Of a DNA stretch of 55,785 bases, positions 2,625-9,664 are shown piece after piece. The notes beneath the pieces were generated by a model. It saw only the letters and a program-made list of their open reading frames with translations, was not told where the DNA came from and ran no database searches. Source of the stretch: Syntrophaceae bacterium UBA4810 (GTDB lineage Bacteria > Desulfobacterota > Syntrophia > Syntrophales > Smithellaceae); NCBI GenBank assembly GCA_002402545.1, contig DHGA01000011.1:1-55785 (forward strand). Reading direction: 5' to 3'. Position 1 is the first letter of the stretch, and each line of letters opens with the position of its first letter. Made by a program: the position numbers and the translations under genes.

Positions 2625-4082
2625 ATGGATCTGGTCAATGCTGCGTTATCCGCCATAAAGAGCTTACGGATACAGGATGTTCTGGATATCGCGATTATTG
2701 CCATAATGCTCTTTGCTTTTTTTATCTGGTTTAAAAACAGAGCTTCGCGCTTTGTACTCATCGGCATCATTCTTCTTGGCGGAGTTTATATAGCCGCCCG
2801 TTTCATGCAGCTTTATCTTACCACTATCGTGCTTCAATCTTTTTTCGCCATCGTATTGTTTGTGCTGGTAGTAATTTTCCAGGAAGATTTACGCAACCTT
2901 TTTGAAAGATTGGCTCTCCTGGGCAATCTCAGGAAAAAGTCCCGTCCCCTTTCCGACCTGGAAAAAGCCTCCGAGATAATAACGCACACGGCGGCGGATC
3001 TTTCAAAAAAAGGCGTCGGCGCGTTAATTGTCCTGCAGGGCGAAGATCACCTGGAGAGACATCTGAACGGAGGAACAAAACTCGATGGATTGCTCAGCGA
3101 ACCTCTGCTGCAAAGCATTTTCGATCCTCACTCTGAAGGCCATGACGGAGCGGTTATTATCAAAGACAACCAAGTAAAAATGTTTAGCTGTCATTTGCCT
3201 TTGTCTGTGAACACATCGAGATACGGAAATATTGGCTTACGACATACGGCAGCGGTCGGGCTCGCGGAGCGTTCCGATACCCTTTGTGTTGTCGTTTCAG
3301 AAGAATCCAGATCAATATCGATTGCCTACCAGGGTATACTTATCAAAATGAATAACGCTTCCGAGCTGCATAGCGAACTGGATAAATTTTATGTGCGCAA
3401 TGTTCCATTAAAAAAACGGCATCCGGTGATCGCCTGGCTTAAAGAAAATTCCAAAGAAAAAATAATCGCTCTGGCTTTGGCCTGCATTTTATGGTTTGCC
3501 TTTGGCTATCAAAGAGAAATCGTGCGCCGTAATTTTATTATTCCGATTGAATATCGAAATGTTCCGACTGATTGGCGAATTGATGAACCACGCCTGACCG
3601 AAGCAAAGGTCATTCTTCAAGGCCCCCAACAGGCTTTTTATTTACTTGATGAACGCGCGCTAAAATTATCTCTGGATCTTTCTTCAGTATCCGCGATAAA
3701 ACAAGAAATTATACTTTCTAAGGATATGATCAGCGTACCCTCTAATTTATCGATTACGGAAATAAAACCGACCAAGGCCTATATTTACGCGACGCGGCTG
3801 ATAAGTGGTTCCTTTCCCGTAAAAATTGCGACCCAGAATTCCTTACCAAACAACCTTTCATTGCAAAGGATAAGCATATCGCCCCAAAAAATTAACCTCC
3901 TTTTTGATTCCCGCATGAATCATGAAAAAATCAAGATTGAAACAGAACCAATCGATTTACAGAATATAACTTCCAACACTACCATTGATACAAAAGTTGT
4001 ATTGCCCGAGGGCGTTTATTTTCCGGAAAGAAAGCCGCCGACCATACGTGTAATAATCAGCGTAAAAAACAAAAAGCTTTAG
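2625..4082 (+). CDS. dacA: Membrane diadenylate cyclase (CdaA/DacA type) fused to YbbR/CdaR-like domains
   Basis: Three N-terminal TM segments, VIFQEDLR, GALIV, HDGAVII and GLRHTAA, then KIIALALACILW plus YbbR-like beta domains. Confidence 0.85.
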   Translation: MDLVNAALSAIKSLRIQDVLDIAIIAIMLFAFFIWFKNRASRFVLIGIILLGGVYIAARFMQLYLTTIVLQSFFAIVLFVLVVIFQEDLRNLFERLALLGNLRKKSRPLSDLEKASEIITHTAADLSKKGVGALIVLQGEDHLERHLNGGTKLDGLLSEPLLQSIFDPHSEGHDGAVIIKDNQVKMFSCHLPLSVNTSRYGNIGLRHTAAVGLAERSDTLCVVVSEESRSISIAYQGILIKMNNASELHSELDKFYVRNVPLKKRHPVIAWLKENSKEKIIALALACILWFAFGYQREIVRRNFIIPIEYRNVPTDWRIDEPRLTEAKVILQGPQQAFYLLDERALKLSLDLSSVSAIKQEIILSKDMISVPSNLSITEIKPTKAYIYATRLISGSFPVKIATQNSLPNNLSLQRISISPQKINLLFDSRMNHEKIKIETEPIDLQNITSNTTIDTKVVLPEGVYFPERKPPTIRVIISVKNKKL

Positions 4083-4219: not shown

Positions 4220-4699
4220 ATGGGAGTTTTTACAGCAAGTGACATCGTGGAAGTAGCCATCAGGATTGAGGAAAACGGCATTAATTTTTATAAATTTGCC
4301 GAGCAGATAGCAAAGCAACAGGAAGCAAAAGAACTTTTTGCCCATCTGGCAAAAGAAGAGGCGAATCACAAAAAGATTTTTGAAGGTATCTTCGCAAAAA
4401 TAGAAAAATATAATCCTCCCGAAAGCTATGCGGGAGAATATAGCGCATATTTACGTTCTTACGTCGATAACAACATAATTTTCACTAAAGAAGCGATGGA
4501 TAAGGAACTATCCAGAGTAACTGACACGATTGCCGCATTTGACTTTGCCATCAGGCGCGAACTGGATTCAATTCTTTATTATCACGAAATTAAAAAATTA
4601 GTTCCCTCGGCGCAACACGACACTATCGAGCAAATTATAGAAGAAGAAAGAAAACACTACAAGATTCTTACCGAACTGAAGAAAAGAATCGAAAAGTAG
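4220..4699 (+). CDS. Ferritin-like / rubrerythrin-family diiron protein (no rubredoxin domain)
   Basis: AIRIEENG..FY, EEANH, AIRRE..SILYY and EERKH diiron motifs. AGGAGGAG RBS. Confidence 0.88.
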   Translation: MGVFTASDIVEVAIRIEENGINFYKFAEQIAKQQEAKELFAHLAKEEANHKKIFEGIFAKIEKYNPPESYAGEYSAYLRSYVDNNIIFTKEAMDKELSRVTDTIAAFDFAIRRELDSILYYHEIKKLVPSAQHDTIEQIIEEERKHYKILTELKKRIEK

Positions 4700-4724: not shown

Positions 4725-6077
4725 TTAAGAATATTTCTTAAGTTTGTAGCGTAGCATGCGTTCAGACATACCAAGTATTTCCGCAGCTTTTGTTTGATTG
4801 TCGTCAGCCTTTTCCATGGCGTCGGCAATCAATTTTTTTTCTAAATCTTCGACAGATTCTTTTAGATGGCCAAAATGTTTTCTCCCGGAATCGATACCTG
4901 GCGCTGAAGATTGAAAAGGCAGGTCCTCGGTGGCAATATATTCATCTCTTGCAATTACTACTGCCCGCTCCAGGATATTTATCAGTTCGCGAATGTTGCC
5001 CGGGTAATTATATTTCAAGAGGAGATCGCGCGCTTCCGCGGTTATACCTTTGATTATTTTCTTATTTTCATTGGCGTATTGTTGAATGAAAAAGTCAATT
5101 AAGATAGGCAAATCTTCTTTTCTCTCTCTCAACGGCGGCAAAGACATGGTTACGACTTTTAACCGGTAAAACAAATCTTCTCTAAAAGCGCCCTCTTTTA
5201 TTTGTTTTTCCAAATCGCGGTTAGTCGCGCTTATCACCCGCACATCGACATTTATATTTTGATTGCTGCCGAGGCGTTGAAGTTCCCGCTCCTGCAAAAA
5301 CCGCAGCAGCTTAACCTGAACAGTAGGAGTCAGCTCGCCAATTTCATCAAGAAATAAAGTACCGCCGTCAGCTTCTTCAAAACGGCCGATGCGCCGTGAT
5401 GTGGCGCCGGTGAACGCCCCTTTTTCGTGGCCAAATAATTCACTCTCCAATAAATTTTCGTGCAGCGCGACACAATTAACAATTATGATCGGCTTGTTTG
5501 CCCGGGGGCTCAATTGGTGAATAAGCCTGGCTAAAAGTTCTTTACCCGTGCCGCTTTCTCCCTGAATCAAAACCGACGCCCGGCTGGCGGCCACACGGCC
5601 GGTCATATTAATAACTTCAGCCATTTGCGGACTTTTATAAATGATCTTATCGGCAGTAATGCCTTTTTTCCCCAGTTCCTCTCTCAAAAGCTCGTTTTCT
5701 TTAATCAGTTGTCTTCTTTCTGCCACACGGTTTACCAAAAGCAGCAGTTCATCTAGCTCCACCGGTTTGGTAATATAATCAATCGCGCCGACCTTTATTG
5801 CCTCAACGGCTGTTTCGATCGTGCCGTAAGCGGTAATAATCACAACATCTATTTCCGGGTTGATGCGTTTAATTTCTTTGAGAACTTCCAACCCGTCCAT
5901 GCCCGGCATTTTATAATCAAGAAGAACAAGGTCGAAATGATTACCCATCACAGTTTTAATAGCATTTTTGCCGTTCTCGGCTTCAGAAATGTTATGCCCT
6001 TCGGAAAGCAAAAAATCCCTCAGCATTTCCCTCTGGGATTGGCCATCTTCAACTATGAGGATGCTCAATTTTTGCAT
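4725..6077 (-). CDS. Sigma54-dependent response regulator (NtrC/ZraR family)
   Basis: REC domain (LLDYKMPG), Walker [31 protein letters not shown] and a Fis-type HTH. Confidence 0.95.
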
Positions 6078-6081
6078 AATT

Positions 6082-7881
6082 TTATCCTTTTTCTTTTAAC
6101 GGCCTGTCGTTTAATCTTTCTCGTGGCAAGACTACCTCAAAAGTTGTCCCCTCGCCTTTTCGGCTGATCACTCGTATTTCCCCTCCGTGTCCGCGGATGA
6201 TTTCGCTAGCCAACGGAATTCCCAGCCCAACCCCTTTTTCCTTAGTCGTGTATTCAGGGCTGAAAATCCTTTCTATTTCATCCACCGCCATGCCGCAACC
6301 GGTATCTGAAATTCTCACGATAATATAATTTTTCCCTTCCTTATCGACTGTGATGGAAACTTTCCCCTGGGCGGGTATTGATTCCATGGCATTTTTAATT
6401 AAGTTAAGAAATGCCTGCTGAATTTTATTAATATCAACCGGAATTACCGCGGGTGACTCGCGCCACTTAGTTTCGATAATCACTCCGCGATCCTGCGCCT
6501 CTTCCCGAATAAGGCTTACGATTTTCTGTAATATTTCCGTGATAGAAAAATCGCGCAGCTCCAGCCTGCGGCTTTTGGAAAAAGATAAAAATTCTTCAAT
6601 GATACCGTTTAATCGCTTTATTTCATCTTTGATAACACTAGACAAATTATTAAAGTTTTCTTCTTTGCTTGATTCAGCGGGAACAAAATCTTTTTTCAGT
6701 CTCTGCGTAGCGATACTGATCGCATTTAATGGATTACGGATTTCATGAGCCACGCCCGCCGCCAGCTGTCCCAGCGAAGAAAGCCGTTCCGCTTTTTCCA
6801 GGCGCCTTTCCATTTCAATAATACCAGACAAATGGCGGTTTTGGTCGTAATAAAGAAGCCACATCGAAAGAAGCGCGATAATTACAATAAAAACCATAAA
6901 CACAAAAATATTTTTCTTGTTTTCCGCAATAATCTTATCCATCGAGCCGCGATCAAGCCCCATCCGGACAATGCCGACAACTGTTTTGTCTAAAAACAGG
7001 GGCGCGGCCAGATCCAAAATTTTTTGTTCACCGTAATCGACTTCTCTGCTGGCAATCTTAATCTTGCCGGCAAGAATGTCTTTATAATTAAAATCGGTTT
7101 CTTTTAAAGCATGGCTTGGATTGCCAACACTGCTCAAAAGCTTTTTTTGATCGTTTATTATCTGAACATAGGTGATGCCGTGCCCCTCACCGATTTTTTC
7201 CATGCCTCTTTCAACGGCAACTTTAAGGCTCCAGTAAATCAACCCTTCTTTATCCAGATTTATTATAACCATGCCACTGTTGTCTTTGCGGCGAAGAACA
7301 ACAAATCCAATTCCATGCTTGGCCCGAATTTTCTCCAGTATTTCCAGCGTTGTCAAATAACGTCCGTCGATTCTAAGTTCTCTGGGTTCAAGTAAATTTG
7401 TTTGCAAGGGACCGCTCTGATGGACGACTTCACCATAGCGATCCAGCACGGCCAGGTACCAGAGATTATTTTCCGCGGCAAACTTTTTCAAATAATCATC
7501 GTTTACCTTGCCTTTTCTCCACTGGTCATCTATTTTTTTACCCAAATCAGTTACTGCTTCAATAACCCATCTTTTGGAGTAAGCCGCTTCTTCCCTGCTT
7601 GGCGACATCAACCGGGATGACTTTTTATCAGCCGCCGAAATTATGCTTTTTAAATTCTCTTCCGTTAATCGCTGCAAAACACTGATCGTGCTTAAAGCCT
7701 GGTCTTCCAAAAAGCCAACCAGATTAGCTTTGCTTCTTCTGATATCGAGTAAACCCATAATTAATATCAGGGTTACTAAAATAGCGCTCACAATGCCTAC
7801 TGCCAGCGGCTGAAGAACAGTGCCCCTTTTACCTCTTAGTTTGCTGTTGAGAATTAATTCCTTTTTTCTAAAAAAGCGCAT
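6082..7881 (-). CDS. Membrane sensor histidine kinase
   Basis: Two TM segments around a periplasmic domain, H-box AHEIRNPL, NLIKNA, DTGCG and GVGLG. Confidence 0.93.
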   Translation of the reverse strand: MRFFRKKELILNSKLRGKRGTVLQPLAVGIVSAILVTLILIMGLLDIRRSKANLVGFLEDQALSTISVLQRLTEENLKSIISAADKKSSRLMSPSREEAAYSKRWVIEAVTDLGKKIDDQWRKGKVNDDYLKKFAAENNLWYLAVLDRYGEVVHQSGPLQTNLLEPRELRIDGRYLTTLEILEKIRAKHGIGFVVLRRKDNSGMVIINLDKEGLIYWSLKVAVERGMEKIGEGHGITYVQIINDQKKLLSSVGNPSHALKETDFNYKDILAGKIKIASREVDYGEQKILDLAAPLFLDKTVVGIVRMGLDRGSMDKIIAENKKNIFVFMVFIVIIALLSMWLLYYDQNRHLSGIIEMERRLEKAERLSSLGQLAAGVAHEIRNPLNAISIATQRLKKDFVPAESSKEENFNNLSSVIKDEIKRLNGIIEEFLSFSKSRRLELRDFSITEILQKIVSLIREEAQDRGVIIETKWRESPAVIPVDINKIQQAFLNLIKNAMESIPAQGKVSITVDKEGKNYIIVRISDTGCGMAVDEIERIFSPEYTTKEKGVGLGIPLASEIIRGHGGEIRVISRKGEGTTFEVVLPRERLNDRPLKEKG

Positions 7882-7911
7882 TATTATCCTTTGTTATTAA
7901 TTTCGGCGGTA

Positions 7912-7939
7912 ATCTTAAGCTATTGATGAGAAAAGTCAA
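7912..7939 (-). promoter_or_regulatory. Sigma70-type promoter of the kinase-regulator operon
   Basis: TTGACT-N16-TAAGAT on the minus strand. Confidence 0.5.
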
Positions 7940-7957
7940 CTTTTAATCCTAAAAAAA

Positions 7958-8065
7958 TCGACATTTTTGTCGAAAACTTCGCCAATTATGTAAAAACTTC
8001 TTAAACATTTGTATTATTTATATATTTACCATAAGACTCTCTTTTCATCCGACAATTATTGCCGT
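7958..8065. promoter_or_regulatory. Candidate enhancer (UAS) sites for the adjacent sigma54 activator
   Basis: Perfect TCGACA-TTTT-TGTCGA (7958-7973), a degenerate copy TCGCCA-ATTA-TGTAAA 21 bp later (7979-7994), and CCGACA-ATTAT-TGCCGT (8049-8065). Confidence 0.6.
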
Positions 8066-8152
8066 AATTTAAGAGCCGCTTATCTCTCACAAGATTGGTA
8101 TTTAAAGCCTTTATATCAATAATTTCAGCCATTTAAAATATTTAAGCTGATG

Positions 8153-8169
8153 TTGGCACACTAAATGCT
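8153..8169 (+). promoter_or_regulatory. Sigma54 (-24/-12) promoter
   Basis: TTGGCAC-ACTAA-ATGCT, with GG at 8155-56 and GC at 8167-68 (exact GG-N10-GC). IHF-like TATCAA-N4-TTC at 8114-8126. Confidence 0.75.
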
Positions 8170-8179
8170 TGATTAAAAG

Positions 8180-8305
8180 TAAAATTGGTAACAATTGTCG
8201 ACTAAAATAACGGGCATAACTAGCCGGCAGCAGATTAACCTTGAAGGCATTAAGCCTTCTCTCTTCACTCCTAGGGAGGCTCCAACAGAGCCTCCCTTTC
8301 CTTTT
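8180..8305 (+). ncRNA. Candidate sigma54-dependent small regulatory RNA (~125 nt)
   Basis: Lies between the sigma54 promoter and a plus-strand terminator, with no ATG or RBS. A CU-rich stretch TCTCTTCACTCCT (8260-8272) sits between two hairpins. Confidence 0.65.
8273..8305 (+). terminator. Intrinsic terminator of the candidate sRNA
   Basis: AGGGAGGCTC-CAACA-GAGCCTCCCT followed by TTCCTTTT. The U-rich tail exists only on the plus strand. Confidence 0.75.
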
Positions 8306-8317
8306 GTGCCAAAACAA

Positions 8318-9664
8318 CTAATCATCCCCGCTCTTCTTTCCTTTTTTCCACGCATCTATTCTGTCTTTGATAATCTTTTCAAAACCTGTGCCTTTTGGCT
8401 GATAAAATAACTTCTGCCCGATTTTTTCCGGCAGGTAATCCTGGGCAACATAAGAATCCTGATAATCATGCGCGTATTTATATCCTTTGCCGTAATCAAA
8501 TTCTTTCATCAATTTTGTGGGCGCGTTGCGAATATGCAGCGGCACCGGCAGATATCCGCTCTGACTTATTTCCTCTTTGATACTTCCCAAAGCGGTGTAA
8601 AGGGAGTTGCTTTTGGGAGACGTGGCCAGATAAACAGCCGCCTGCGCCAAAGCCAATTCTCCCTCCGGCAAACCGATAAAGTGATATGCCTGCTGTGCCG
8701 CCATACAAACAATCAGTGCCTGGGGATCGGCCATTCCCACGTCTTCCGAGGCAAAGCGGATCATGCGCCGGGCAATGTAGAGGGGATCTTCCCCGGCCAG
8801 CAACATTCTGCCCAGCCAATATAAAGCCGCGTCAGGATCGCTGCCACGCAAACTTTTATGAAAAGCGGAAATAAGATTATAATGTTCCTCTCCGTCCTTA
8901 TCATACAAAAGAGCTTTTTTCTGCAACGCCTCCCGGGTAAATTCCAGCGTAACATTTCTCTCATTTTCAGGTAAATTTTGCACCATGGAAACAACTGCTT
9001 CCAGATTGTTTAAAGCATTGCGCGCATCGCCATCAGACAGACAGACGACATAGCGCAAAGCGTCTTCATCCATCCGCACATAATACTTTCCAAGTCCTTT
9101 CTGTTCATCTTTTAATGCCCGCTTAACAATAGTTATAAGCTCTTCTTCAGAAAAAGGCTTCAAAATCAAAACTCTGGTGCGTGATAAGAGAGGAGCAATA
9201 ACTTCAAAGGAAGGGTTTTCCGTGGTAGCGCCGATTAAGGTAATCAAGCCGCTTTCCACATGCGGCAAAAAAGCATCCTGCTGCGCTTTGTTAAAGCGAT
9301 GAATTTCATCAACAAAAAGAACGGTTTTTTTATTTTTTTCATTATGCAATTGACGGGCTTCGTCAATAACCGCGCGAATCTCTTTCACCCCGGACAGCAC
9401 AGCAGAAAAACTGACAAATTTAGATTTGGTTTCATTGGCTAAAATTCTGGCCAGGGTGGTTTTCCCCGAACCGGGAGGCCCCCAGAAAATCATGGAAAAC
9501 AGTTTATCTTCTTCAATGGCGCGCCTTAACAAGCAAGCATCGCCCAGAAGGTGGGGCTGCCCGACATATTCGGAAATATTTTGCGGCCTCATTCTTTCCG
9601 CAAGCGGCGCCGATTCTTTTATTGCGGCTGCTCCGGTATTACTGAATAAATCCAGGTTTTTCAT
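8318..9664 (-). CDS. rarA: Replication-associated recombination protein A (MgsA/RarA AAA+ ATPase)
   Basis: PLAERMRP, WGPPGSGKTT, FVDEIHRFNKAQQD, GATTENPSF and HYNLISAFHKSLRGSDPDAA. Confidence 0.96.
   Translation of the reverse strand: MKNLDLFSNTGAAAIKESAPLAERMRPQNISEYVGQPHLLGDACLLRRAIEEDKLFSMIFWGPPGSGKTTLARILANETKSKFVSFSAVLSGVKEIRAVIDEARQLHNEKNKKTVLFVDEIHRFNKAQQDAFLPHVESGLITLIGATTENPSFEVIAPLLSRTRVLILKPFSEEELITIVKRALKDEQKGLGKYYVRMDEDALRYVVCLSDGDARNALNNLEAVVSMVQNLPENERNVTLEFTREALQKKALLYDKDGEEHYNLISAFHKSLRGSDPDAALYWLGRMLLAGEDPLYIARRMIRFASEDVGMADPQALIVCMAAQQAYHFIGLPEGELALAQAAVYLATSPKSNSLYTALGSIKEEISQSGYLPVPLHIRNAPTKLMKEFDYGKGYKYAHDYQDSYVAQDYLPEKIGQKLFYQPKGTGFEKIIKDRIDAWKKGKKSGDD

Follow-up and report, generated by a model that had tools for sequence, protein, structure and literature searches.

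Porin-repressing small RNAs (sRNAs) are presented as the non-coding arm of the envelope response in the available sections of two reports (PMC11005410, PMC1804206). The sRNA predicted here lies in a 55,785-nucleotide contig of Syntrophaceae bacterium UBA4810 (the window, meaning the whole stretch of DNA that was analysed), and it resembles MicA/RybB, VrrA/MicV and FoxI/FoxJ of Fusobacterium nucleatum in being, as predicted, the non-coding arm of an envelope response that would repress abundant porin mRNAs by base pairing. By analogy, it is likely to work like MicA/RybB or FoxI/FoxJ. MicA and RybB are Hfq-dependent and controlled by sigmaE, whereas the RNA described here would be under sigma54 and two-component control, with a conserved -24/-12 box and enhancer sites, and Hfq was found in none of 121 genomes of the order (control positive in 5/14). 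It has no sequence or Rfam match to MicA/RybB or FoxI/FoxJ, and differs from them in having a dedicated target hairpin, 40–65 nt upstream of the target gene, that changes together with it.

According to the part of PMC8383071 available, Staphylococcus aureus RNAIII acts on rot and coa through two contact sites, with loop–loop kissing, a translation block and RNase III cleavage, and Listeria LhrC uses CU-rich anti-RBS motifs and has no need of Hfq; LhrC is induced by envelope stress via a two-component system (PMC4132741, in part). The RNA described here is likely to pair in the manner of RNAIII. It differs from RNAIII and LhrC in its Gram-negative host, porin target, sigma54 promoter and length of about 125 nt, and in a kissing loop that is G-rich on the sRNA, C-rich on the mRNA and away from the RBS. 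For Myxococcus Pxr, the available portions of PMC5568312 and PMC5684412 describe three stem-loops, a sigma54 promoter beside an NtrC-type regulator, an essential SL1 loop, a host without hfq and a role in the control of development, and give no direct targets. The three stem-loops, the sigma54 promoter by an NtrC-type regulator and the hfq-less host recur here; however, Pxr lies downstream of nla19 in myxobacteria, whereas the RNA described here is divergent from a kinase gene in Smithellaceae relatives, and Pxr gave no Rfam match to it at E<=10.

Salmonella ZraR drives the divergent sigma54 promoter of zraP under envelope stress (PMC4987338, in part). Our locus is similar in its kinase–regulator pair divergent from a sigma54 promoter, with AtoS/ZraS and AtoC/ZraR as best family matches, and in the ZraP-like genes that fill or flank the same slot in three relatives (G040, G042 and G049). 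Unlike ZraSR–ZraP, it has an RNA as its output, profile scores below cut-off and a predicted sigma70 promoter for the operon, and a separate ZraP module lies elsewhere in the genome, on contig C90. CpxQ is cut from the cpxP mRNA and needs Hfq, whereas the RNA described here has its own predicted promoter. Further sigma54 sRNA outputs of two-component systems are described in the available parts of PMC4987338 and PMC3333781, and both GlmY/GlrKR and Desulfovibrio Dv_sRNA2 (DVU0679) share with our locus the plan of an sRNA output of a two-component enhancer-binding protein. GlmY differs in being a protein decoy, and GlrR recognises TGTC-N10-GACA where the sites here read GACA-N4/5-TGTC; Dv_sRNA2, compared from its description, is encoded downstream of its regulator, and no function is known for it. 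By the tests run, the RNA belongs to none of these systems; we take it to be a new sRNA family, the predicted target of which is specific and co-evolves with it. No published description of it was found in the literature searched, a collection without most subscription papers.

A sigma54-type unit between the kinase and rarA genes

The gap between the start of the kinase gene (7881) and the stop of the convergent rarA/mgsA gene (8318..9664, minus strand; Pfam) holds a whole non-coding unit, and sequence inspection bore out the earlier note, which had placed a sigma54-type transcription unit there. Synteny with rarA/mgsA is usual but not required, the gene being missing from RNA-bearing loci such as L027, L036 and L049. 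The adjacent minus-strand operon encodes a membrane sensor histidine kinase with a Cache-like extracytoplasmic region (6082..7881; AtoS/ZraS-like) and a sigma54-dependent response regulator with receiver, AAA+ and Fis-type HTH domains (4725..6077; AtoC/ZraR-like). These assignments come from Pfam, with NCBIfam matches all below cut-off: AtoC and ZraR are the best matches of the regulator (471 bits against 760 for the ZraR profile), and the kinase scores 209 bits against 479 for the ZraS profile. A predicted sigma70 promoter of the operon, TTGACT-16-TAAGAT, lies at 7912..7939 (minus strand), its words being visible also in most relatives' sequences. The regulator is likely to be the activator of the small RNA.

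Two palindromic upstream activator sites, the perfect TCGACA-N4-TGTCGA of UAS1 (7958..7973) and the CGACA-N5-TGCCG of UAS2 (8049..8064; bases 8050–8064), had been proposed previously and are each present in all 31 family loci that had enough flank for comparison (here and below, named relatives are Smithellaceae/Syntrophales metagenome-assembled genomes); a third palindrome proposed at 7979 is degenerate, with a match in only 4/31. UAS1 lies 185–196 nt upstream of the promoter box, and the perfect palindrome occurs five times in the 2.3-Mb genome. The activator site accompanies the kinase even in loci with a different output, which supports its belonging to the adjacent regulator. The -24/-12 box, TGGCAC-N5-ATGCT (8154..8169, plus strand), is kept in relatives and has the correct GG-N10-GC spacing, as the sigma54 promoter claimed for this position should, and rpoN is present in the genome. 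As for an IHF-like site previously put at 8114, a modest signal held up and the position did not. Within the AT-rich region at 8114..8135 the exact matches fall in a conserved register at about 8123, 30–31 nt upstream of the promoter box; scored against an IHF consensus, 21/31 family loci match with at most one mismatch, compared with 9/31 in a control stretch, and 4/31 match exactly, compared with none in the control. The genome has four IHF/HU genes.

The predicted RNA (8180..8305, plus strand; about 125 nt) takes its start from promoter spacing and has three stem-loops, which are described by our covariance model R1. Stem-loop 1 (8196..8229) displays the loop motif ACGGGCAU at 8210–8217; stem-loop 2 (8243..8259) covaries, with two-sided changes in 5/6 pairs, and is missing in some lineages (e.g. 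loci L040 and L045); a single-stranded CU-rich stretch, UCUCUUCACUCCU (TCTCTTCACTCCT in DNA; 8260..8272), forms a predicted second site; and an intrinsic terminator follows (8273..8306; two-sided changes in 7/8 pairs), the 10-bp hairpin of which (8273–8297) has its T tail on the plus strand only, as had been reported. The RNA folds with z = -3.08, only 1/200 shuffles being equally stable. In an alignment of 38 RNAs, with a three-stem structure specified by us, 87% of cells were paired and 18/24 pairs showed two-sided changes, a count reached by none of 500 shuffles; slid controls were 30–57% paired. RNAalifold's own consensus for stem 1 (GGC/GCC) was set aside because the longer stem shows two-sided changes. 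The RNA is 78–84% identical to 19 other-genus loci, and the spacers between the promoter elements are 57–59% identical. Within the family, CUCUUC and a GGGY(A/G) loop are each present in 31/31 loci, and the unit recurs beside orthologous kinases, where the earlier note had proposed to look for its conservation.

The claim that the unit is non-coding stands: there is no ATG in 8180–8310, and a small peptide was rejected on this ground and because closed ORFs within the RNA vary in length across relatives, anywhere between 0 and 40 codons. A CsrB/RsmZ-type sponge was likewise rejected, there being no repeated GGA loops in the RNA alignment and no CsrA found in this 87%-complete genome; ProQ was not found either, in a search of this genome only. 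An Rfam scan, proposed in the earlier note, gave no family match to the RNA: with the Rfam 15 covariance models the best E value was 3.7 over positions 7000–9500 of the window and 0.26 over eight loci (homologues and porin leaders), all far below gathering, and such families as Rfam has for Pxr, GlmY, Qrr, MicA and RybB did not match. In the contigs of a single low-share RNA run (one RNA run among three runs found), positions 8180–8290 are uncovered. Three features of a trans-acting base-pairing sRNA are present, namely its own promoter and terminator with no conserved ORF, a conserved structure with covariation, and conserved complementarity to an mRNA encoded elsewhere. We have little doubt that this is a real sRNA gene, its transcription being predicted from the sequence.

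Model R1 places the RNA beside the orthologous kinase in 48/50 family genomes and 90/146 order genomes, and recovers 50 of the 51 relatives' loci searched, the single miss being a contig that ends early. Kinase matches at E<=1e-40 were obtained in 55/61 genomes searched, and most of 40 further order-level matches have the same activator site and promoter box. In the order search the RNA was not found in families f2, f4, f5 and f14. Among 150 genomes of the phylum, only the four that belong to the order scored strongly, and the 14 weak matches, spread over 12 others, covered the terminator alone and had neither promoter nor loop; the class sample consisted of same-order genomes only.

Several other features of the neighbourhood were observed. 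A diadenylate cyclase (CdaA_N and DAC) fused to YbbR domains is encoded at 2625–4082 of the window, in a Gram-negative syntroph, and a rubrerythrin-like gene (4220–4699) is convergent with the regulator gene; a rubrerythrin-like gene also lies downstream of the sigma54 unit in genome G040 (locus L054, 1048–1515), an association that might point to a signal of oxidative or metal type. In several genera, short palindromic repeat-like insertions occur between the terminator and rarA (L018, L021, L025–L028).

The RNA loop and its complement in porin leaders

Stem-loop 1, absent from the earlier note's listing, is the most conserved part of the RNA. Its near-invariant loop is the main predicted recognition site, and the complement, AUGCCCGU, occurs in a hairpin loop 40–65 nt upstream of porin genes. 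A search for the complement near the starts of 2204 script-called genes gave four matches, two of which are tandem paralogues on contig C26 that carry AUGCCCGUUU at -59/-60. Both of these genes begin AGGAGG-N4/5-AUGAAGAGA, the complement of UCUCUUCA-CUCCU in the RNA; thus UCUCUUCA of the CU-rich stretch is complementary to UGAAGAGA at the porin start codon, and CUCCU to AGGAG. The two hairpin-bearing genes took ranks 1 and 2 when 2135 called genes were scanned for two-seed duplexes, and a motif match of at least 7/8 in a hairpin loop at -80..-25 was found in 2/2141 genes of this genome, again these two. Their products are exported proteins of about 450 residues ending in Phe, modelled as an 18-strand beta-barrel (AlphaFold, pLDDT 69) with AlgE and C. 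jejuni MOMP as best Foldseek matches, and they have weak Porin_4 and DESULF_POR1 profile matches; on the barrel model and these fold and profile matches we call them porins. Two further porin paralogues in the genome lack the hairpin and keep the start-site match. Other single-seed targets, e.g. genes that we take to be mlaD-like and phoU-like from our own reading of their sequences, included none with a hairpin-loop site.

Among relatives, the site lies in a hairpin loop in 88/147 porin leaders and in 58/66 genomes of the RNA type (a set that includes G023 and G036, in which the RNA locus is cut by the contig end), compared with 0/12 genomes without a clear RNA match, of which G089 has a borderline model match. 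These counts cover the fetched porin copies and leave out leaders shorter than 80 nt and locus L347, which has a misplaced start. Genome G077 has AUGCCCGU at -60 and no RNA match, and there the word is predicted to be paired. The leader hairpins fold with a median z of -2.3 (100 sites), and their arms are 25% identical between groups (ungapped) whereas the 6-nt core is 90% identical. The predicted opening cost is 0.8 and 0.3 kcal/mol for the two RNA sites and 0.0 for the leader GCCC loop; such open sites and the failure to find Hfq fit chaperone-free kissing of the RNAIII type. In many family members (e.g. L169, L121 and L159) the docking hairpin is flanked by a second conserved pair, GRRGU upstream and ACUCU downstream, words that may form an outer stem around it. 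Porin paralogues are expanded in some genomes, with 8–12 matches, partly in tandem (G035 L116/L089, G007, G002, G015), and the hairpin is present in some of these copies and absent from others.

Loop and leader site change together. All six genomes of genus g2 have the RNA loop ACGGGUAU, and 10/15 of their leader sites read AUACCCG, the other five pairing by G-U, compared with 1/48 elsewhere in the family; this co-change is one evolutionary event. Matching changes were also seen in G059 (GGGCAC/GUGCCC), in G051, G070 and G112 (CCGGGCA/UGCCCGG), in G067 (GGGGCAU/AUGCCCC) and in G087, where they extend to 13 bp. Letter-by-letter predictions of the leader sites were written in advance, those for families f15 and f16 not being blind, as G050 and G051 had been seen. 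The predicted octamer was exact in G070, G112 and G087 and correct at 7/8 positions in G067 and G100; all seven f15 leaders departed from the prediction at the outer letter, and G062, G080, G145 and G150 departed from it at the two 3' letters, pairing in these four being extended at the opposite side instead. Of the 24 loci in the prediction set, 22 had the UGCCC core. Across 15 lineage groups, cognate loop–site pairs exceeded swapped ones in stability (p = 0.0003 by permutation; 0.004 when the outlier f18 was dropped, 0.006 for 10 groups and 0.004–0.016 after influential groups were taken out), p-values that are optimistic since the lineages are related and the sites were chosen by motif; the cognate group ranked first in only 6/15 groups. 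Taken from this complementarity and co-change, pairing of the RNA with porin leaders appears to us highly probable.

The CU-rich stretch had earlier been taken for the seed of a general repressor directed at Shine–Dalgarno (SD) sequences. It could indeed cover the ribosome-binding region, and against all four porin starts of this genome it falls in the top 1.5–2.5% of 400 sampled SD-bearing starts. It is, however, variable and missing in some lineages: CUCCU follows CUCUUC exactly in only 18/31 family loci, and the second site is absent in RNAs of the G051/G070/G112 type and weak in G041, G052 and genus g3. Order-level RNAs often have CUCCUG, matching CAGGAG. The anti-SD seed is thus a real but secondary determinant, the invariant one being the loop of stem-loop 1, and in place of general anti-SD repression the evidence points to one target class, the porin mRNAs.

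Proposed mechanism and competing explanations

Our current working hypothesis, to which we assign a probability of roughly 0.64, is that activation of the neighbouring ZraSR-like system, probably by envelope stress, leads a sigma54-dependent sRNA to repress porin synthesis independently of Hfq. The kinase would sense an extracytoplasmic cue, envelope stress being suggested by the likeness to ZraS/ZraR and by the ZraP-like genes in the slot. The phosphorylated regulator would bind both CGACA/TGYCG sites, probably with the help of IHF, and the sigma54 promoter would open. The open loop of the RNA would then nucleate pairing at the GCCC loop exposed in the porin leader, 40–65 nt upstream of the AUG, and the loop–loop contact would zip up to 7–13 bp, after which the CU-rich strand, complementary in most lineages, could cover the SD sequence and start codon. 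With the start site covered, initiation would be blocked and RNase III might be recruited; this enzyme was found in 60/60 relatives and not in this 87%-complete genome, probably through incompleteness. The built-in kissing hairpin would stand in for Hfq in allowing fast pairing. In G041, G051, G052 and genus g3, where the second site is weak or absent, repression would need another route.

The same RNA and the same kissing contact might instead activate or stabilize the porin mRNAs, by shielding them from nuclease or by unfolding an inhibitory structure, with the CU-rich stretch as a secondary element. Stabilizing sRNAs can act at sites 40–65 nt upstream of the start, where the invariant contact lies here. 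FoxJ is described, in the available part of PMC11005410, as activating by hairpin targeting. The loss of the second site in some lineages points the same way, and in some fold models the SD sequence is partly paired in the porin leader, which leaves room for activation; we nonetheless think it unlikely, since the 3' strand is complementary across SD and AUG in most lineages, at the high rank among SD-bearing starts given above, the leader hairpin has no U tract immediately after it, and the stretch leading up to the SD is for the most part rich in A and without structure. Repression could also be broader than we propose, with the RNA acting, as the earlier note had it, on the SD or start codon of many envelope mRNAs, of which porins would be one class. 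The 3' strand does fit the two hairpin-less porin paralogues and other MKR-starting genes (eight genes of this genome begin ATGAAGAG), and the unit on contig C100 described below keeps UCUCUUCAU with a different loop. We consider this a slim chance: the loop is near-invariant while exact CUCCU is not, the loop site is confined to porins, and short single-site pairing would be less likely to be efficient without Hfq.

Repression of porins through RNA pairing must also be set against two explanations in which there is no pairing at all. GGGCA and UGCCC are reverse complements, and hence the same word in DNA, so they might be one DNA motif read by a protein, or the RNA might be a protein-binding decoy, with the complementarity as a by-product; an altered protein specificity could yield the co-change as well. 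This is improbable, as both words lie in hairpin loops whose arms covary or turn over completely, the orientation is always complementary on the sense strands, the variants are mostly G-U tolerant, and a second, independent complementarity exists at the start codon; searches of this genome turned up no CsrA, Hfq or ProQ. The earlier note had itself pointed to a deletion scar should relatives carry a protein gene after this promoter. One does: in G049, alone among the loci examined, a ZraP/Spy-like gene (PF13801) follows the same activator sites and promoter, and in each of G040, G042 and G049 the first gene of the kinase operon is ZraP-like. On this account the unit would be functionless today, a scar or the 3' UTR left behind by a ZraP/Spy-like gene that was lost. 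The covarying stems, reached in no shuffle, and the matched target site that co-changes with the loop speak decisively against it, as do conservation far above that of the flanking spacers and retention across many families, and we regard it as extremely improbable. An origin of the RNA from the UTR of a ZraP/Spy-like gene, as with CpxQ, is possible.

How sRNA and mRNA pair fast in Gram-negative bacteria without Hfq is an open question, and the porin-repressing pair proposed here would give it an answer that is concrete and open to test: the target itself contains a structured receptor loop, and compensatory variants occur in nature. We see about an even chance that the pair is an order-wide, chaperone-free arrangement, in which Syntrophales porin mRNAs have evolved a docking hairpin that co-evolves with the sRNA loop, kissing in trans in the style of plasmid antisense RNAs replaces Hfq, the RNA has taken the ZraP slot as the envelope-stress output, and each porin paralogue comes under control or escapes it according to whether it retains the hairpin. 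For Syntrophales, syntrophs of key importance in anaerobic digesters and wetlands, it would also be a predicted sRNA–target pair, none having been found in the literature searched, and, if true, would link their porin content to a two-component signal. The case lends itself to tests in vitro or in an E. coli hfq mutant, for which the organism need not be grown.

ZraP-like genes, the signal and related units

The kinase tree groups 29 kinases together against four paralogues and gives no order for RNA and protein outputs. ZraP/Spy-like periplasmic genes were seen at L053 of G049 (1333–1806 and 2219–2701, one on each side of the kinase), L054 (2120–2647) and L064 (3169–3810), and no ZraP-like gene under a divergent sigma54 promoter was found in the window. 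Elsewhere in this genome, on contig C90 (16397–18800; L367), a separate kinase gene is divergent from a sigma54 promoter and ZraP-like gene, with no CGACA palindrome in the 300 nt inspected. Because of this separate module, we put envelope stress as the signal of the kinase, suggested by the analogy with ZraS, at only about even odds.

No second close copy of the RNA was found in this genome. Several other genomes hold a second copy or diverged paralogue (L316–L322; e.g. G030, G033, G041, G072, G121, G320 and G321), usually with the activator site and a GGGCA loop. Three loci (L050 in G037, L054 in G040 and L055 in G055) have no GGGCA loop and keep the activator site and the promoter, which is followed by a different non-coding stretch and a terminator; the stretch in G037 holds CCUCCUGU, matching ACAGGAGG of its own porin, the leader of which has no hairpin. 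A second unit with UAS palindrome and sigma54 promoter lies on contig C100 of the present genome (1910–2225; L058 and L351) and recurs at L352 and L353; it was found in only 3/81 family genomes, and in it a non-coding stretch of about 120 nt with a different first loop ends in UCUCUUCAU and a terminator. Its RNA matches all four porin starts at AUGAAGAGA, and the unit is likely to be a young sibling sRNA of the same regulon.
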